A stretch of DNA of 32,000 nucleotides. Origin: Synechococcus sp. A15-24 (GTDB lineage: Bacteria > Cyanobacteriota > Cyanobacteriia > PCC-6307 > Cyanobiaceae). Where the stretch lies: contig NZ_CP047960.1 in the NCBI RefSeq assembly GCF_014280195.1, positions 1,320,001 to 1,352,000 on the forward strand. The letters are read 5' to 3'. The notes below the pieces were generated by a model. That model worked only from the letters and a program-made list of their open reading frames with translations, made no database searches and was not told where the DNA came from. The position numbers were made by a program, and so were the translations under genes. Shown piece by piece: positions 23,488-32,000 of this stretch; the first letter of the stretch is position 1; each line of letters begins with the position of its first letter.

Positions 23488-23573
23488 GGGGGCATGGCGG
23501 AATTGGTAGACGCACGCGACTTAAAATCGTTTGGGCCGAAAGGCCTGTGGGGGTTCAAGTCCCCCTGCCCCCA
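23488..23573 (+). tRNA. tRNA-Leu (anticodon UAA)
   Basis: I folded this by hand. The acceptor stem is GGGGGCA/TGCCCCC and the D-arm is GCG..CGC. The anticodon loop is CTTAAAA (TAA). There is a long variable arm GGCC-gaaa-GGCC and a T-arm GGGGG-TTCAAGT-CCCCC, with discriminator A. CCA is not encoded. Confidence 0.9.
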
Positions 23574-23898: not shown

Positions 23899-24920
23899 GG
23901 CTGAAGCCTCCAGGGCAGCGTTTCCCCAGCATGGAAGGGAACCAGCCCGTTCACCAGCTCGGGCACGTCAACAGCAACCTTTTCAAGGATGACCGTGTCG
24001 TTGTTCACCGGCAGGCCGTAAAAGGTTGGACCGTGCAGGGAGGCGAAACCTTCGAGGTGATGCATGGCCTCTTCCTCTGCAAAAACCTGGGTGTAGCTCT
24101 CCAGCGCATGGGGGGCATTGAAGATGCCTGCACAGCCGCAGGAGGTTTCCTTGCCGGCTCTCGGATGAGGGGCGGAATCAGTGCCCAGGAAAAACCGTGG
24201 ATCTCCGCTGGTGGCCGCCCGCCGCAGAGCAAGACGATGGCGCTCCCGTTTGGCCACCGGCAGGCAGTAGAAGTCGCTGCGCAAGCCGCCAAGGAACATG
24301 GCGTTGCGATTGATGTGCAGGTGATGGGGTGTGATCGTGGCCGCCAGATTGCTATCGGACGAACCCACGTAATCAACGGCCTGCTCGGTGGTGATGTGCT
24401 CGAACACCACCTTGAGCTCAGGATGACGGGTCCGCAGGACCATCAGATGCCGCTCGATGAACGCCGCTTCCCGATCGAACACATCGACATCCGGATCCGT
24501 CACTTCCCCATGAATGAGCAGAGGCATGCCGATGGCCTCCATCCGGCTCAAGACAGGTCCAATCTGACCGAGATCAGTCACACCAGCGGCTGAATTGGTC
24601 GTGGCGTTCGCGGGATACAGCTTGGCGGCGGTGTAGACCCCCTCCTGGAAACCCCGCTCAAGATCATCTGGATCTGAGTTGTCCGTGAGATAAGCGGTCA
24701 TCAAGGGTGTGAATGCCACCCCTTCAGGACAGGCCGACAGGATGCGGTCGCGGTACGAACGCGCTGCATCCACCGTCGTAATCGGCGGTCGCAGGTTGGG
24801 CATCACGATGGCTCGCCGGAAGCAACGGGCTGTGTAGGCCACAACCCGTTCCAGCATCTCCTCATCTCTGAGGTGAACGTGCCAGTCGTCCGGAGCGGTG
24901 ATCGTGAGCTGTTCAGGCAT
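23889..24920 (-). CDS. pyrC: dihydroorotase (homodimeric, E. coli type)
   Basis: [19 protein letters not shown] has the DDWHxHLRD metal site. Later motifs include [16 protein letters not shown] and [10 protein letters not shown] prefer the ATG at 24920 over the track TTG at 24938. Confidence 0.93.
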
Positions 24921-26583
24921 GGGTTGGAAGCCCTTCAACCGCCAGACGCAGAGCCGACAGGCGATCAGAGGTGAGATGACCCTCAGGCAAGCGCTCCAGC
25001 AACTTCAGTTTGCGAAGGCGATTCTCGGTGCTTCCGGAAACACCAACCATGAACACATCGCGGCCCACCTCCATCGCTTCTTTCACTGCATTCTCAAGGG
25101 CGATGGCAGCGGTCACCCCCAGGTGGGACACCTCGGAGAGGTCAAACACCACAGCCTGGCAATTGCCGATGGCGTTGTGCTCGCGGGAGATCGCCTTAGC
25201 AACCCCAAAAATCATCGGACCAGCCAACTGGAACAGCAGCACCATGCCGGAGGCTCGATCCAGCAGCTGCTGCTCCTCATCACTGAGCTCCACATCGTCA
25301 TCGGTGGTGCTGATGGTTTTCACCTTTTTGGACTGCAGCGTGCTCATGCGGTCGATCGTGAGCACGTTGGCGACAAACACGCCGATGCCCACTGCAGCGA
25401 TCAGATCCACCAGCACAGTGAGAGCGATCACGCCGTAGGTGATCACCGCAGCTTTCACCGACAGATGGTGGGCCCGCTGGAGAAAATCCCAGTCGATGAT
25501 GTCGATGCCCACCTTCACAGCGATGCCGGCGAGCACCGCCAGGGGGATGCGGGATGCCAGCGGAGCCGCCAGCAACACCACCAGCATCAGCACAATGGCC
25601 CTGACAATGCCGGACAAGGCGGTTCGTCCGCCGGACTGAATGTTGACCACCGTTCCCATGGTGGCTCCGGCACCAGGCATCGCCCCAAACAGCCCGGACA
25701 CGACATTGGCCAGACCCTGGCCGATCAGCTCCTTGTTGGAATTGTGTTCCGTGCGGGTCAGGCTGTCGGCAACCACTGAGGTGAGCAACGCATCAATGCA
25801 GCCGAGCATCCCGAGCACAGCGGCATCGATCACCATCAGCCGCAACTTACCGCTGGAGAACGTCGGCAGCTGGAAGCTGGGAAATGCGGCAGAAAACTCC
25901 GGAATGGTACGCAGACCTGCGCCACTGAACAGGCTCAGAGCCAGCACCGTGCCCACCACAAGTGCCAGCAACTGCGGCGGGCAGACCTTTTTCACCGCAG
26001 AGGGGGTGAACCAAAGGATGGCCAGGGTTATCAAGGCCAGCAGCAGCTCCATGGGCTGGGTTCCCTGAACCAGGGCCGGCATCTCCAACAAGGTGCCTAT
26101 CACCCCCCCCTTGGGAGTGGCCTGTCCCAGGAAGGGCCCCAGTTGCAGCAGCACCAGGATGATGCCGATGCCGGACATGAAGCCCGAAATCACCGTGTAG
26201 GGCATCATCGTGACGTAACGCCCAAGCCGGAACAGACCGAAGAGGATCTGAAAGATCCCGGCCAGAACGCCGACGCTGAAGGCCATCGCCAAGGCCTGCT
26301 CAGGGCTGTCGGCTGTCGCGGTGAAACTGATGATCACTGACGTGAACACCACGGTCATCGGGCCTGTGGGCTCCGAAATCAGGGTGGGCGTGCCACCGAA
26401 CAGCGACGCCATCAGACCGATGATCACCGCCCCCCAGAGACCAGCGGCAGCACCGGCACCCGAAGCGATGCCGAAGGCCAATGCCATGGGCAACGCGATC
26501 ACGGCAGCTGTGAGTCCGCCGAACACATCCCCCTTCAGGTTTGTGGCGTTGATGCGGTTCAGCACGATCCGGCCCAGCGTCAA
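24913..26583 (-). CDS. bicA: SulP-family Na+-dependent bicarbonate transporter BicA type, with C-terminal STAS domain
   Basis: From [39 protein letters not shown]...[12 protein letters not shown]...[19 protein letters not shown]...[20 protein letters not shown], the sequence matches BicA as I remember it almost block for block. The start is TTG 26583 or GTG 26565. The 150 codons upstream in the track ORF overlap the divergent antiporter gene and are rejected. Confidence 0.85.
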
Positions 26584-26643: not shown

Positions 26644-27753
26644 ATGCCTGACTTCCTCAGAGCGACCATCGACGTGCTCCTCGGCATCGGCCTGCTCTTT
26701 GGAGGAGGGGAACTGTTCGTGCAGGGCTCTGTGGCTCTTGCGGTGATCTTCGGCATTCCGCAGCTGGTGATCGGTCTCACCGTGGTCTCCCTTGGCACCA
26801 GCGCACCCGAACTGTTTGTCAGCCTGAGTTCGGTGTTGGAGGGCGCCGACACCCTGGCCGTGAGCAATGCCGTCGGAAGCAACATCTTCAATGTGATGGT
26901 GGTTCTTGGGGCCAGCGCACTGGTGCTTCCCCTCAAGGTGGAAAGCCGCCTGGTGCGACGGGATGTTCCCCTGCTCATCGCCATCTCCGCCGCGGTCTGG
27001 GGGATGGCCGCAACCGGTCAGGTGACCTGGCAATCGGGTGTGGCGTTGCTTCTGGCGCTGGTGATCAACACCATCTGGGAAATCCGCACGGCTCGTGAGG
27101 AGCCCGACGGCAGTGAAGGGGCCGAGCCTGAGATCAAAGCCAATGCTGGGCGCGATGGCTGGACCATGGCTGTGGTGCGATTGATCGCCGGGATTGTCGT
27201 CCTCACGATCGGCTCCAGGGTGCTGGTCAGTGGCGCCACATCAGCGGCCTCGCTTCTGGGCGTCAGCGAAGCGGTGATCGGCTTGACCATTGTCTCGGCC
27301 GGTACATCGATGCCGGAGTTGATCACCTCGCTTGTCGCAGCGTTACGAGGTCGGACAGACCTGGCGATCGGCAACGTGGTGGGGAGCTGCCTGCTCAATC
27401 TGATGCTGGTACTGGGTGGTGGGGCTTTGGCAGCTGCCGGTCGTGGCCTTGAAGTGAGCCCTGAACTGATTCAGGATGATTTGCCCATCATGTTGATGAC
27501 CAGCCTCGCCTGTCTGCCGATTTTCTGGACCCGCGGTTGCATCACACGGCTGGAAGGTGGGCTGCTGCTTGGGCTGTACGTGCTGTACGTGATCGACAAC
27601 GTGCTGCCGAGAACAACGCTGTCCAGCTGGTCGGATGAATTCCGCCTGGTGATGCTGTGTCTGGTTCTGCCTGTTGTGATAGTGGTGATCATCACTCAGG
27701 CAATTTTTTACTGGAAGAGAACGAAAGGTCGTCCGGATCACATCCCTGGGTGA
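26644..27753 (+). CDS. CaCA-family Na+/Ca2+ (cation/Ca2+) antiporter, YrbG type
   Basis: 369 aa. Two alpha-repeats are present: GTSAPELFVSL...SNAVGSNIFNVMVVLG and GTSMPELITSL...GNVVGSCLLNLMLVLG. Confidence 0.88.
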   Translation: MPDFLRATIDVLLGIGLLFGGGELFVQGSVALAVIFGIPQLVIGLTVVSLGTSAPELFVSLSSVLEGADTLAVSNAVGSNIFNVMVVLGASALVLPLKVESRLVRRDVPLLIAISAAVWGMAATGQVTWQSGVALLLALVINTIWEIRTAREEPDGSEGAEPEIKANAGRDGWTMAVVRLIAGIVVLTIGSRVLVSGATSAASLLGVSEAVIGLTIVSAGTSMPELITSLVAALRGRTDLAIGNVVGSCLLNLMLVLGGGALAAAGRGLEVSPELIQDDLPIMLMTSLACLPIFWTRGCITRLEGGLLLGLYVLYVIDNVLPRTTLSSWSDEFRLVMLCLVLPVVIVVIITQAIFYWKRTKGRPDHIPG

Positions 27754-27846
27754 GGTGTGAGACGGATGGAGTTGTGTTTCCTCATGAGGGGATGACCGTC
27801 TGAATCTCTCTGTCCATCCTTGGGTCGCGTGTTGCTCGACCTGCCG

Positions 27847-28347
27847 ATGCTCGAGCTGCTTCCTGCTCTCAACGACAAGAACCTTCCCTGGCTCGACGTC
27901 ATCCATCCGATCGTCGTGCATTTCGTCATCTCGATGGCGCTGATCACCGTCGTCTTCGATCTGATCGGAGTCGTTACCAGAAAGAAGAACCTGTTTGAGG
28001 TCAGCTTCTGGAACCTGATCGTCGCCACTGTGGCGATCATCGTCGCCATCATCTTCGGACAGATCGAAGCCGGTCTGGCCAATCCCTACGGCGCCTCGCG
28101 AGACATCCTCAATTACCACAGCACCATTGGTTGGTCCCTGGCCGGCGTGCTGGCATTGCTCACCGGCTGGCGTTACGTCGCCCGTCAGAAAGACCCCAAC
28201 GTCCTGCCGAAGGGGTTCCTTGCCATCGACTTCGTCCTGGCGGGTCTGGTGTTCGCCCAGGTGTACCTCGGCGACAAGCTCGTCTGGGTTTATGGCCTTC
28301 ATACGGTTCCGGTGGTGGAAGCAATCCGTGAAGGGGTGCTCTCATGA
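27847..28347 (+). CDS. DUF2231-like polytopic membrane protein, paralog 1 (first gene of the oxidase operon)
   Basis: I prefer the ATG at 27847 within track ORF 27820..28347 (TTG). The motif is LPWLDVIHPIVVHFVISMALITVVFDLIG, with a later NYHSTIGWSL. By eye it has several hydrophobic segments (roughly four). Confidence 0.65.
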   Translation: MLELLPALNDKNLPWLDVIHPIVVHFVISMALITVVFDLIGVVTRKKNLFEVSFWNLIVATVAIIVAIIFGQIEAGLANPYGASRDILNYHSTIGWSLAGVLALLTGWRYVARQKDPNVLPKGFLAIDFVLAGLVFAQVYLGDKLVWVYGLHTVPVVEAIREGVLS

Positions 28348-28964
28348 CCCTGTTTGCCGCGATTGCATCGCCGATTAACGACATCGCCGACTCCCTCGGC
28401 GCTAATGACCTTCCCTACGCGATTCCCCTGCACCCGAACCTGGTGCATCTCACCATCGGGCTGTTCGCGATCGGGATCGCCTTCGACTTCGCTGGCGCGT
28501 TTTACCCTTTGGAGAAAAGGATCTTCCGCTTCCTGGCCCTGCCCGTGACCCGCAGCGGCTTTCACGATGTGGGCTGGTACAACCTCGTGGCCTGCAGCGG
28601 TATCACCTTCTTCACGGTGGCCGCCGGCTTCTACGAAATGCTGTTGGCGGTACCGCTGCCGGGCATCCGCAGCATCCTCGGCCAGACCGCCATCGACACC
28701 ATGCTCTGGCATGCCATCGGTGGAGTTGCCATTCTGCTGGTGATCGTCGCCATGACTGTCTGGCGCGGTTACCAACGTTTCATCTGGCGCAAAGACCTGG
28801 GACGTCAGGTGACCTGGCTGTACCTGTTCTGCGGGGCCTCGATACTGATGCTGATGGGCCTGCACGGAAGCCTCGGCGCTTGGCTCGCCAGCGATTTCGG
28901 TATTCACATCACCGCCGACCAACTGCTGGCCGCCGGTGCCGATCTCAATGAGGTGCTGCCATGA
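28344..28964 (+). CDS. DUF2231-like polytopic membrane protein, paralog 2
   Basis: ATGA overlap with paralog 1. The motif LPYAIPLHPNLVHLTIGLFAIGIAFDFAG and the later MLWHAIGG parallel those of paralog 1. Confidence 0.65.
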   Translation: MTLFAAIASPINDIADSLGANDLPYAIPLHPNLVHLTIGLFAIGIAFDFAGAFYPLEKRIFRFLALPVTRSGFHDVGWYNLVACSGITFFTVAAGFYEMLLAVPLPGIRSILGQTAIDTMLWHAIGGVAILLVIVAMTVWRGYQRFIWRKDLGRQVTWLYLFCGASILMLMGLHGSLGAWLASDFGIHITADQLLAAGADLNEVLP

Positions 28965-29896
28965 CCACCACTGCTCCCAAGAACAGCCCGAACATCGGCG
29001 CCATCGTGATCATCACGATCGCTGTGGTGATCAATCTGGTGATCGCCAAATTGATGGCGATGTGGTCCTACAGCTGGTTTCCGCCGCAGGCCTCTTCGGC
29101 GGCGCCCTACGTCGACGACCTGTTCGCGTTGGAAACGGGCATCGGCTCCTTCATTTTCTTCGGCTGCACCGGAGTGATGGGTTGGGTGCTGCTGTTCAAC
29201 CGCGCTGGTAAGTACGACGAAAGCGATGGTGCGCCGATTGAAGGCAACACCAAGCTGGAAATCATCTGGACGATCATCCCCCTGGTGACGGTCTTAGTGA
29301 TCGCTGCCTACACGATGAACGTCAACATGAAGCTTCAGAACCTTGGTCCGAAGCACAAATACACCATCGGCACAGACCCAACGGCATTGATGGAGGCCGA
29401 TCCCATCGCAGACGTGGGCCCAATCGATGTGATTGCGCGCCAATGGAGCTGGGAATTTGTCTATCCCAATGGTGTGCGCAGCTCAGAGCTGCATCTGCCT
29501 GTTGATCAACGGGTCAATTTCCGCTTGATCTCTGAAGACGTTCTGCACAGTTTTTTCGTTCCGGCCTTCCGCCTGAAGCAGGACATCATCCCCGGCAGCA
29601 TCATTTCCTACAGCCTGACGCCAACCAAAGAAGGGCGATTCCGGTTGCGGGACGCCATGTTCAGCGGTGCCTATTTCTCCCAGAACCAGACCGACGTCAT
29701 CGTCGAATCCGATCAGGCCTACGGCGATTGGCTGACAACAACCGCCAAGCAACCGCTGCAACCTGGCCTTGACCCTGGCCGTGCTCTTTACGACCGCCGC
29801 ATCGCCCGCGGCGACAAGGGATGGGCCACGGTGCCGCCTGCACCGCCCCCAATGGTGAACGACCCCGGCGATCCCTCCATCCCCCATGACGCCTGA
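28961..29896 (+). CDS. ctaC: heme-copper oxidase subunit II lacking the CuA site (ARTO-type CtaCII)
   Basis: ATGA overlap with the upstream gene. The product has two N-terminal transmembrane segments and a cupredoxin domain: IARQWSWEF, LHLPVDQRVNFRLISEDVLHSFFVPAFRLKQD. The CuA loop reads DAMFSGAYFSQN instead of CxExCGxxHxxM. Confidence 0.88.
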   Translation: MTTTAPKNSPNIGAIVIITIAVVINLVIAKLMAMWSYSWFPPQASSAAPYVDDLFALETGIGSFIFFGCTGVMGWVLLFNRAGKYDESDGAPIEGNTKLEIIWTIIPLVTVLVIAAYTMNVNMKLQNLGPKHKYTIGTDPTALMEADPIADVGPIDVIARQWSWEFVYPNGVRSSELHLPVDQRVNFRLISEDVLHSFFVPAFRLKQDIIPGSIISYSLTPTKEGRFRLRDAMFSGAYFSQNQTDVIVESDQAYGDWLTTTAKQPLQPGLDPGRALYDRRIARGDKGWATVPPAPPPMVNDPGDPSIPHDA

Positions 29897-29899
29897 GCG

Positions 29900-31624
29900 A
29901 TGACCACCACCAATTACGACCCCCGCGTCCTCAAGGCGCCCCATCCCGTACCCGGTGCTCCGGACAACTGGAAGCGCTTCTTCAGCTTCAACACCGATGC
30001 CAAGGTGATCGGCATCCAGTACATCGCCACCTCGCTGTTTTTCCTGCTGGTTGGAGGTCTGCTGGCCATGATCGTGCGCGGTGAACTGATCACACCGCCG
30101 GCCGATCTTGTTGATCCCACGGTTTACAACGGGCTCTACACCATGCACGGAACAGTGATGCTGTTCCTCTTTTTGTTCCCGATTCTCAACGGCTTCAACA
30201 ACCTGTTGATCCCCACGATGATCGGTGCGCCGGACATGGCGTTTCCGAAGCTCAACGCTGCAGCCTTCTGGCTGGTGCCGGTGTTCGCCGTCGTGCTGAT
30301 GGGCAGTTTCTTCGCCCCCGGCGGTCCAGCCTCCTCGGGCTGGTGGTCCTATCCGCCGATGAGTCTGCAGAACCCCCTGGGGCACTTCATCAACGGTGAG
30401 TTCCTCTGGATCCTGGCGGTAGCGCTGTCGGGAATCTCCTCGATCATGGGCGCCGTCAATTTCGTGACGACGATCATCCGCATGCGCGCCCCCGGCATGG
30501 GCTTTTTCAAGATGCCGGTGTTCGTGTGGACCGCCTGGGCCGCCCAGACGATTCAATTGATCGGCCTGCCGGCCCTCACCGGTGGCGCTGTGATGTTGCT
30601 GTTTGACCTCAGCTTCGGCACCAGCTTTTTCCGGCCTGAGGGCGGTGGTGATCCGGTGCTGTTCCAACACTTCTTCTGGTTCTATTCGCACCCCGCCGTG
30701 TATGTGCTGGTGCTGCCGGTGTTTGGCATCTTCTCTGAGCTGTTCCCCGTTTATGCCCGCAAGCCGCTGTTCGGCTACCGGTTCGTAGCCATCGCCTCCT
30801 TCGGCATCACCTTCCTCAGCCTGATCGTGTGGGCGCACCACATGTTCTACACAGGCACACCGAACTGGATGCGCCATATCTTCATGTTCACCACGATGTT
30901 GATCGCGGTGCCCACCGGCGTGAAGGTGTTCGCCTGGCTGGGAACGCTGTGGCAGGGAAATTTGAGGCTGAACACGCCGATGTTGTTCTGCCTCGGAGGC
31001 CTGTTCAACTTCATCTTCGCCGGCATCACAGGCGTGATGCTGGCCACGGTGCCGATCGACATTCACGTGGGTAACACCGCCTTTGTGGTGGCCCATTTCC
31101 ACTACGTGATCTTCAACACGATCGCCTTTGGGGTGTTCGCCGGCATCTATCACTGGTTCCCGAAATTCACCGGCCGCATGTACTACGAGGGCCTCGGCAA
31201 GGTGCACTTTGTGCTCACCTTCATCGGCGCCACCTTGAACTGGCTGCCGATTCACTGGGCCGGCCTGCTCGGCATGCCCCGCCGAGTGGCCTCCTACGAC
31301 CCGGAATTCGCCATCTGGAACGTACTGGGCAGCATCGGCGCCTTCATGCTCGGCGTTGCCTCGATCCCTTTCATTCTCAACATGGTGAGTTCCTGGGCAC
31401 GCGGCCCGAAGGCCCCTGCCAATCCCTGGCGGGCCATCGGTTTGGAGTGGTTGCTGCCCTCCCCGCCACCGGCTGAAAACTTCGAGGACGACATCCCCAC
31501 CGTGATTAGCGAGCCCTACGGCTACGGCCTGGGCCACCCCCTCGTCGAGGACGAGGAGTTCTACGTCCGCCGTTCCCAGGAGGCCTTAACCGATGACCAG
31601 CGTCAACCCCGACATTCAGCTTAA
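29900..31624 (+). CDS. ctaD: heme-copper oxidase subunit I (A2-type, YSHPAV motif)
   Basis: 574 aa. Motifs include FFWFYSHPAVYVLVLP, WAHHMF, VAHFHYV and PRR. Confidence 0.95.
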   Translation: MTTTNYDPRVLKAPHPVPGAPDNWKRFFSFNTDAKVIGIQYIATSLFFLLVGGLLAMIVRGELITPPADLVDPTVYNGLYTMHGTVMLFLFLFPILNGFNNLLIPTMIGAPDMAFPKLNAAAFWLVPVFAVVLMGSFFAPGGPASSGWWSYPPMSLQNPLGHFINGEFLWILAVALSGISSIMGAVNFVTTIIRMRAPGMGFFKMPVFVWTAWAAQTIQLIGLPALTGGAVMLLFDLSFGTSFFRPEGGGDPVLFQHFFWFYSHPAVYVLVLPVFGIFSELFPVYARKPLFGYRFVAIASFGITFLSLIVWAHHMFYTGTPNWMRHIFMFTTMLIAVPTGVKVFAWLGTLWQGNLRLNTPMLFCLGGLFNFIFAGITGVMLATVPIDIHVGNTAFVVAHFHYVIFNTIAFGVFAGIYHWFPKFTGRMYYEGLGKVHFVLTFIGATLNWLPIHWAGLLGMPRRVASYDPEFAIWNVLGSIGAFMLGVASIPFILNMVSSWARGPKAPANPWRAIGLEWLLPSPPPAENFEDDIPTVISEPYGYGLGHPLVEDEEFYVRRSQEALTDDQRQPRHSA

Positions 31625-32000
31625 TCACACCCCGGGCCATGTGAAGCACGACGGTCACAACATGACCGGTTTCGTGATCTTCCTCTGCTCCGAGAGCGTC
31701 ATCTTCCTGGCCTTCTTCGCCGGCTACGCCGTGCTCAAGCTCACGGCTCCTCAATGGCTACCGGATGGCGTTGAGGGGTTGGAGGTACGCATGCCTCTGA
31801 TCAACAGCGTGGTGCTGGTGAGCTCCAGTTTTGTGGCCTATTTAGCCGAGCGCTATCTGCACAAGGGCAACCTCTGGGGTTTCCGGGCGGTGTGGTTCCT
31901 CACCATGGCGATGGGGTCCTACTTCGTCTACGGGCAGTACGTCGAATGGTCGGAACTCACCTTCAGCCTCAGCAGCGGTGTGTTCGGCGGGATGTTCTAT
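31593..32000 (+). CDS. ctaE: heme-copper oxidase subunit III, N-terminal part (runs off the right edge)
   Basis: My own translation from the ATG at 31593 gives MTSVNPDIQLNHTPGHVKHDGHNMTGFVIFLCSESVIFLAFFAGY...LINSVVLVSSSF...GQYVEWSEL. The frame is open to the window end. It overlaps the ctaD 3' end by 32 nt. It is not in the ORF track because no stop lies inside the window. Confidence 0.85.
   Translation, partial: MTSVNPDIQLNHTPGHVKHDGHNMTGFVIFLCSESVIFLAFFAGYAVLKLTAPQWLPDGVEGLEVRMPLINSVVLVSSSFVAYLAERYLHKGNLWGFRAVWFLTMAMGSYFVYGQYVEWSELTFSLSSGVFGGMFY

Follow-up and report, generated by a model that had tools for sequence, protein, structure and literature searches.

A conserved pair of DUF2231 membrane proteins encoded with the CuA-less alternative respiratory terminal oxidase of Synechococcus sp. 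A15-24, a possible electron-entry module

The 3' end of a 32,000-nucleotide (nt) stretch of the genome of Synechococcus sp. A15-24 (contig NZ_CP047960.1, positions 1,320,001 to 1,352,000 of the forward strand; this whole stretch is referred to below as the window) carries a cluster of five genes, all located on the plus strand, as are all features of the cluster given below. Two open reading frames, ORF1 (27847-28347, 166 amino acids) and ORF2 (28344-28964, 206 amino acids), are followed by ctaC (also ctaCII or ctaC2; 28961-29896), ctaD (ctaDII; 29900-31624) and ctaE (ctaEII; 31593-32000, cut by the window end), encoding subunits II, I and III of a terminal oxidase. Pfam searches assigned both small proteins to the family DUF2231 (PF09990; E = 1.6e-36 for ORF1 and 2.2e-36 for ORF2), CtaC to COX2_TM and COX2, CtaD to COX1 (E = 1.9e-152) and CtaE to COX3 (E = 1.4e-15). 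COX2_TM plus COX2, COX1 and COX3 in consecutive genes constitute the gene set of a type-1 alternative respiratory terminal oxidase (ARTO). The present report concerns the DUF2231 pair, which very probably plays a dedicated accessory role of some kind for this oxidase.

The five genes are tightly packed. An ATGA sequence joins the stop codon of ORF1 with the start codon of ORF2 (28344-28347), a second one joins ORF2 with ctaC (28961-28964), ctaC and ctaD are separated by a 3-nt gap (TGA-gcg-ATG, 29894-29902), and from position 31593 ctaE overlaps ctaD by 32 nt. A first-pass annotation of this DNA, made by a model from the letters alone, had given the same positions and junctions, and a check of the sequence found all of them to be correct. 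The ATG start of ORF1 agrees with the N-terminus of its homologs, so that a TTG at 27820 is unlikely to be used instead. Both ATGA junctions were found again in two further picocyanobacterial contigs (L172 and L173). In 64 other cyanobacterial loci, ORF1 and ORF2 overlap by 4 nt (49 loci) or by 1 nt (14 loci) or, in a single case, are separated by 19 nt; the retention of an overlap in 63 of the 64 points to more than local chance. A scan of positions 27400-32000 revealed no promoter-like site, and the terminator-like matches detected in it all fall within genes. The sequence supports the view that ORF1-ORF2-ctaC-ctaD-ctaE form one translationally coupled five-gene operon; the annotation had also argued for a single coupled unit, and the overlaps on which this rests are present in the window and recur across other cyanobacterial loci. 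The 32-nt overlap of ctaD and ctaE results from the 3' part of ctaD (31588-31624), which extends 12 codons beyond the ctaD genes of the relatives L172 and L173, in which ctaE starts 3 nt past the ctaD stop codon.

The oxidase lacks the usual site of electron entry. CtaC matches COX2_TM and COX2 with 38 and 34 bits, modest scores that are nevertheless above the cut-off, while its score against the NCBIfam model CoxB is under the cut-off. At the position of the CuA motif CxExCxxxHxxM the protein has RDAMFSGAYFSQNQ (29648-29689), and an alignment with three other ARTO CtaC proteins showed that the CuA ligands are gone, as the annotation had stated. A regular-expression search did not find the CuA motif in the window or in any of 80 related loci. 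Alignment of CtaD with Escherichia coli CyoB, in which three other ARTO CtaD proteins were included, revealed that transmembrane helices (TM) 0 and 13-14 of CyoB are missing from all four ARTO proteins. The high-affinity quinol site of the bo3 oxidase is formed by R71, D75, H98 and Q101 of CyoB; at these positions CtaD of the window has V, L, V and G, and the site is likewise missing from the three other ARTO proteins. Scores of CtaD against the NCBIfam models CyoB and QoxB are far under their cut-offs. Helix VI of CtaD contains YSHPAVY (30683-30703) where CyoB has GHPEVY, i.e. the D-channel Glu is missing and a Tyr-Ser pair is found instead; we take this to be the A2-type proton-channel motif of the heme-copper oxidase classification. 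The same motif is present in the other aligned ARTO CtaD proteins, with a single variant, YSHPTVY (L001). Since neither CuA nor the known quinol site is present, CtaC, CtaD and CtaE alone leave electron entry unexplained. The annotation had argued from the missing CuA that the two preceding proteins might serve electron input, and the absence of a bo3-type quinol site from CtaD strengthens this argument.

ORF1 and ORF2 match nearly the whole length of the PF09990 model (125.8 bits at model positions 4-138 and 125.4 bits at positions 2-138 of 139, respectively; gathering threshold 26.4 bits). They also match each other in a BLASTP comparison (25% identity, E = 3e-7), which, together with the Pfam result, corroborates the paralogy proposed in the annotation. 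No NCBIfam model matches either protein. The nearest homologs are proteins of marine Synechococcus, e.g. strains CC9605, RS9907 and MIT S9220, with 89-97% identity to ORF1 and 74-91% identity to ORF2. We know of no characterised member of DUF2231 and of no solved structure for the family.

An AlphaFold2 model of ORF1 is a confident four-helix membrane bundle (mean predicted local distance difference test score, pLDDT, 85; predicted template modelling score, pTM, 0.79) with helices at residues 19-44, 48-77, 82-115 and 124-148 and a short extra helix at 154-161. The core of the ORF2 model (pLDDT 78.7, pTM 0.72) consists of the same four helices, and its cytoplasmic loop between TM1 and TM2 is longer than that of ORF1. 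The TM1-TM2 and TM3-TM4 loops are rich in Lys and Arg, which by the positive-inside rule suggests that both termini are periplasmic or lumenal.

Conservation was followed in approximately 480 sequences of both paralogs, ranging from picocyanobacteria to Nostocales. In 297 orthologs of ORF1, residues H20, D38, N56, E74, H91, G95, W108, R109, R113, G142 and G150 are invariant, and H25, G71 and H152 are conserved in more than 99%. The residues of ORF2 conserved in at least 99% of 184 orthologs are H30, H35, D48, N80, G95, E98, H123, G127, W140, R141, R145, G178, G186 and H188. Conservation of the His residues in orthologs, on which the annotation had staked its hypothesis, therefore reaches at least 99% in both paralogs. 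Among 124 diverse members of the whole family the near-invariant elements are H-P-x3-H-F in TM1, a Gly in TM2, a His in TM3 and W-R at the end of TM3, the His residues being kept in at least 120 of the 124; they correspond to H20, P21, H25, F26, G71, H91, W108 and R109 of ORF1, and ORF2 has the equivalents.

In terms of DNA, the H20-P21-x-x-V24-H25 segment at the periplasmic start of ORF1 TM1 is encoded at 27904-27921 and its ORF2 equivalent at 28431-28448. The H91-S-T-I-G95 segment near the periplasmic start of TM3 lies at 28117-28131, and H123-A-I-G-G127, its counterpart in ORF2, at 28710-28724. The His codons that the annotation had placed at 27904, 27919, 28431 and 28446 are thus right, and those of the later HxIG motif are at 28117 (ORF1) and 28710 (ORF2). 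In the models, the conserved His residues sit where TM1 and TM3 meet the periplasm and shortly past TM4; all four of them, E74 and the Gly residues of TM2 and TM4 are no more than a few residues away from the periplasmic interface, and D38, N56, W108, R109 and R113 sit in the cytoplasmic half. In one ortholog of ORF1, encoded in an AT-rich metagenome-assembled Nostocaceae genome (P0276, P0390), H20 and H25 are replaced by Asn and Tyr; this copy may be decaying, in a genome that is reduced or that of a symbiont.

The annotation had suggested a phylogenetic profile of the pair and the CuA-less oxidase genes. For this, a search with aligned CuA-less CtaC sequences was run over a genome set limited to one member of each species, and the best 80 of its 314 matches were analysed. 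These loci come from Nostocales, Oscillatoriales, Leptolyngbyales, Pseudanabaenales and Chroococcales, and all contain a CuA-less ctaC; the ARTO loci of Synechocystis 6803 and Synechococcus 7002 fall outside the best 80. In 73 loci the upstream sequence was long enough to judge, and 64 of these carry an intact DUF2231 pair upstream of ctaC on the same strand, mostly at a short distance (at most 323 nt in 59 loci and at most 66 nt in 47). Look-ups from the side of the pair gave the order DUF2231-DUF2231-COX2-COX1-COX3 in seven of seven contigs, and the same order occurs on Nostoc plasmids. The pairs of Cylindrospermum, the Nostoc plasmids, Calothrix and Scytonema consist of proteins of 164-166 and approximately 201 amino acids whose genes overlap by 4 nt. 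Comparison of the loci thus supports an old and strong linkage of the pair to ARTO, in agreement with the co-occurrence that the annotation's hypothesis would predict.

In one of the remaining nine loci ORF1 is split by an insertion. In the other eight, the pair was not found within the 2.5-8 kb of upstream sequence available, and in five of the 64 positive loci it is located 1-7 kb from ctaC; both observations count against the electron-entry role favoured below. The loci without a nearby pair come mostly from one CtaC subclade, and several of them belong to genomes holding a second ARTO locus with a pair. Some genomes contain orphan CuA-less ctaC copies without a downstream ctaD (L009, L011, L014), and two tandem copies of the ARTO cluster were detected in one Rivularia contig (L069).

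Genes of flavoproteins recur beside the ARTO clusters. A gene for an NDH-2/SQR-like protein of the Pyr_redox_2 family, approximately 460-480 amino acids long, is present in 28 of the 80 loci, usually directly after ctaE or directly before the pair (e.g. L003, 11734-13155; L089, 10420-11865; L005, 5279-6715). It remains beside the pair where 1-7 kb separate the latter from the cox genes (L049, L054, L061, L068); no NCBIfam equivalog was found for this flavoprotein. In picocyanobacteria a GMC oxidoreductase gene directly follows ctaE (L172, 9877-11496; L173, 9873-11387), at a place that would lie past the window end, and an MGH1-like glycoside hydrolase gene is often encountered near the ARTO cluster, as it is in L003 and L090. 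The GMC and glycoside hydrolase neighbours hint at an oxidation of sugars or compatible solutes feeding ARTO. Clusters of this kind resemble small self-contained dehydrogenase-to-oxidase chains, which fits an electron-transfer role of the pair somewhat better than pure assembly.

The linkage of the pair to ARTO is not new; it is already recorded in the literature, where an explanation for it is missing. The type-1 ARTO operon of Anabaena sp. PCC 7120 is given as alr2729-alr2730-coxB3-coxA3-coxC3, and the CuA-type cox2 operon of the same strain as coxB2-coxA2-coxC2 only (PMC6616624). Like ORF1 and ORF2, alr2729 and alr2730 are two open reading frames directly upstream of the oxidase genes; judging from close Nostocales relatives, they probably encode DUF2231 proteins. 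In a SigC transcriptome alr2729, alr2730 and coxB3 are co-regulated (PMC4390870), and neither paper on the Anabaena ARTO reports a function for alr2729-alr2730 (PMC6616624, PMC4390870). For Prochlorococcus, a supplementary table of Dore et al. 2023 places two DUF2231 genes together with ctaC2/D2/E2 in the ARTO gene cluster Pro-eCAG_016, whose genes are adjacent and co-occur; the two, Cyanorak clusters CK_00001898 and CK_00001899, are labelled 'uncharacterized conserved membrane protein (DUF2231)' and have niche correlations nearly identical to those of ctaC2/D2/E2 (PMC10119275). They are confined to the supplementary table, the main text covering ctaC2-D2-E2 only (PMC10119275). Our literature search met the term DUF2231 in the main text of just one paper, on an unrelated matter, and retrieved no structure or purification of ARTO and no paper assigning a function to the pair. 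The statement of the annotation that no accessory subunits of ARTO have been described therefore holds as far as function is concerned, and has to be amended in that the genes themselves already appear in the published Anabaena and Prochlorococcus clusters.

Within the accessory role we tentatively favour a heme-b electron-entry module on the periplasmic side that serves ARTO. Each protein, or the pair together, would hold a b-type heme near the periplasmic face, with the TM1 His (H25 of ORF1, H35 of ORF2) and the TM3 His (H91, H123) as ligands, and the invariant Gly residues of TM2 and TM4 at the same depth would give space for the heme ring. Electrons would come from plastoquinol, or from a neighbouring flavoprotein dehydrogenase via quinone, and would be handed on to the low-spin heme of CtaD, so that the module would replace both the lost CuA and the absent bo3-type quinol site. 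The family membership, paralogy, topology, conservation and co-location of the two proteins and the loss of both CuA and the quinol site are observed; from these we infer the heterodimer, its heme, which way the electrons flow and between which partners.

Several observations point towards heme. The TM1 His, TM2 Gly, TM3 His and TM4 Gly are all found at a depth of 2-4 residues from the periplasmic interface and are conserved in at least 99% of the sequences; such a His-Gly-His-Gly arrangement at one depth would resemble the bis-His heme pocket of a four-helix bundle. Weak Pfam matches among 90 diverse DUF2231 proteins fall to cytochrome b561 (PF01292; 43 proteins), COX15-CtaA (11) and CydA (9), all of which are heme-b helical bundles. 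The PF01292 matches place TM2-TM3 of DUF2231 on TM1-TM2 of the b561 model, and hhalign aligns the TM3 His-x3-Gly...Arg (H91/G95/R109) with H45-x3-G49...R59 of CybB, an alignment that is not significant. Like the cytochromes b561 (CybB, YceJ and YodB of E. coli; PF01292), DUF2231 proteins have four TM, a His at the periplasmic start of a helix running from outside to inside, followed by x3-Gly, and an Arg at the cytoplasmic end; unlike them, they have a topology shifted by one helix, with the N-terminus outside.

Against this stands a series of negative or discordant results. All PF01292 scores within the DUF2231 family are under the threshold of 30.1 bits, ORF1 reaching 16.4 bits (E = 0.008) and ORF2 giving no match, and hhalign comparisons with CybB or with an alignment of CybB, YceJ and YodB yielded probabilities of 0.2-8.5%; homology to b561 was for this reason rejected as proof of heme and kept as a hint. 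A profile search of PDB sequences returned only a chance match to a pilin, and the best Foldseek match, CcmF, is insignificant (E = 0.26). The two hemes and four His ligands of b561 have no parallel, as no conserved His is found in the cytoplasmic half of DUF2231, which could consequently hold one heme at most. Moreover, the conserved His residues are one-sided and very shallow, so that a metal-ion site would also fit.

The relatives outside cyanobacteria weigh on the same side. Such DUF2231 proteins are fused to HMBD, YHS or TRASH domains, and His-rich periplasmic tails were found in 37 of the 90 diverse members. In 80 metagenome loci, collected with an alignment of 12 closer DUF2231 sequences as a query, the genes immediately adjoining DUF2231 encode, among others, CusA/CzcA-type pumps (7 loci), their outer-membrane factor (5), DUF305 (3), CopB (2), CopA-type multicopper oxidase (2) and a P-type ATPase (1), and no COX subunit is present among 122 neighbour proteins of non-cyanobacterial DUF2231. 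In metagenome contigs of this type (L104, L105, L122, L160, L169) the DUF2231 gene is located at metal loci, either between the gene of a CusA/CzcA heavy-metal pump of the resistance-nodulation-division family and that of the outer-membrane factor or immediately before a multicopper oxidase gene; on a Legionella plasmid (L086) it also adjoins a multicopper oxidase gene. A redox protein serving periplasmic metal centres would reconcile the heme and the copper lines of evidence. As for the annotation, its idea of a dedicated input or assembly module gains from the linkage, the conservation and the missing CuA and quinol site, and falls short in that heme binding is not established; the conserved His residues on which it based a b-heme stand, but no solved cytochrome b is matched significantly in sequence or fold, and the relatives point to copper or other metals.

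These contexts would suit a copper-handling assembly factor, the main rival reading, which we consider rather unlikely. A periplasmic cluster of four His and one Glu would bind Cu and deliver it to CuB of CtaD, or import it for this delivery, and the pair would serve the assembly of ARTO and not its operation; possible analogues are Cox11, Bacillus CtaG/CopD-type proteins and CcoA, the importer specific to cbb3 oxidase. Cox11, CtaG/Caa3_CtaG, CopD-type proteins and CcoA are membrane proteins with conserved His residues that are encoded with oxidases, some of them being specific to one oxidase, and assembly factors in general are often encoded within oxidase operons. In addition to the domain fusions, the His-rich tails and the position of relatives inside CusA/CzcA loci or beside CopA-type multicopper oxidase, CopB, DUF305 and P-type ATPase genes, the four invariant His with the Glu at the periplasmic interface and the line of conserved Asp, Asn and Arg down the bundle would suit such a factor. 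However, neither ORF1, ORF2 nor any of the 90 representatives matched CopD (PF05425), Caa3_CtaG (PF09678) or Cox11 at E values up to 0.5, the recurring weak matches being to heme-b families (a weak match to DUF4149 was seen in 4 of the 90). His-rich tails and metal-binding domains are absent from the cyanobacterial pair, it is unclear why a CuA-less oxidase, which needs less copper, should have a copper factor of its own, and the tight 1:1 coupling and the flavoprotein linkage better fit a working subunit. The weak heme-family matches can be read in another way, namely that the proteins bind heme transiently for the insertion or modification of the CtaD heme, comparably to Surf1 or the halves of CtaA/COX15; we regard this as quite improbable. 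It would agree with the COX15-CtaA matches (11 of 90), with the top, insignificant fold matches, the heme-handling proteins CcmF and CcsBA, in which His residues likewise occur both in TM and in the periplasm, and with the internal duplication of CtaA, which two paralogous four-helix bundles mirror; yet every one of these similarities is below significance, the metal-resistance contexts of the relatives are left unexplained, and nothing points to a special heme in ARTO.

The pair could also lack any cofactor, ORF1 and ORF2 being structural or stabilising subunits, or loosely related membrane proteins kept nearby by operon history. The 13 of 73 loci in which the pair is not adjacent, the fact that no cofactor has been shown and the Nostocaceae ortholog without H20 and H25 agree with this, but the co-inheritance with the ARTO genes does not, and His, Asp, Asn, Glu, Arg and Gly residues conserved to at least 99% in approximately 480 sequences are hard to explain without a bound ligand, which makes this possibility improbable as well. 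Most doubtful of all is a periplasm-side metal reductase that would be fed by quinol, reduce Fe(III) or Cu(II) and share a plasma-membrane electron chain with ARTO. It could account for the reported need for ARTO in reductive iron uptake. Synechocystis strains mutated in ARTO are reported to be less able to reduce Fe(III), and ARTO genes are more frequent in ocean populations from low-iron waters (PMC10119275), a niche correlation that the DUF2231 genes share. The metal-binding periplasmic tails of the relatives in copper loci and the putative cofactor site, placed by the models on the periplasmic side, would be in line with such an activity. The idea is wholly inferential, though; the cyanobacterial pair has no metal-recruiting tail, and the operon of Anabaena is expressed in heterocysts and linked to the respiration that serves nitrogen fixation (PMC6616624). 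An equivalent of subunit IV (CtaF/CyoD) was considered and rejected, as there is no Pfam match and two four-helix proteins would correspond to one three-helix subunit.

The favoured electron-entry module has partial precedents. In the archaeal SoxABCD complex, an A-type quinol oxidase whose SoxA lacks CuA, quinol is oxidised by an extra heme-bearing subunit of the cytochrome b type, SoxC, a homolog of the cytochrome b of the bc1 complex. Unlike SoxC, the DUF2231 proteins belong to an unrelated and much smaller four-helix family whose cofactor is only putative. SdhC and SdhD are two small related membrane proteins that together provide one bis-His heme b and a quinone site for a flavoprotein dehydrogenase, and the analogy is drawn because flavoprotein genes recur beside the ARTO clusters. 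The pair differs from SdhC/SdhD, which have three helices each, in having four helices per protein, in showing no sequence relationship and in having its partner in an oxidase operon.

The electron donor of ARTO has been an open question since CuA was found to be missing, and the bo3 quinol site is now missing too. A co-inherited pair with an invariant periplasmic His cluster is a concrete target for this question, and a function for the pair would be the first for DUF2231. The matter is of some ecological weight: ARTO is present in 85% of marine Synechococcus reference genomes and marks Prochlorococcus populations of low-iron waters (PMC10119275), and diazotrophic growth of Anabaena is described as requiring its heterocyst oxidases, Cox2 and ARTO (Qox) (PMC6616624). 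One may go further and speculate, as an unlikely extension, that the DUF2231 proteins make up a new class of small redox proteins with a single cofactor on the periplasmic side (mono-heme b or His-ligated Cu) linking the quinone pool with metal centres that face the periplasm, that ARTO would be a five-subunit plastoquinol oxidase in which a two-paralog heterodimer replaces CuA, and that the module could act as the long-sought plasma-membrane Fe(III)/Cu(II) reductase to which the reported role of ARTO in reductive iron uptake would be due. If this were true, the relatives of the pair in copper operons would be metal reductases.

The upstream flank of the operon is variable. In the window, a gene for a Na+/Ca2+ exchanger (26644-27753, same strand) ends 93 nt upstream of ORF1, a synteny shared by L172, and is preceded by a SulP/STAS transporter gene on the minus strand, opposite to ORF1 (24913-26475). 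In L173, ndhL, DUF3007 and trpA are located directly upstream instead. The remaining genes of the window are ordinary housekeeping genes, and a tRNA-Leu gene (anticodon UAA, 23488-23573) is the sole Rfam match in it.

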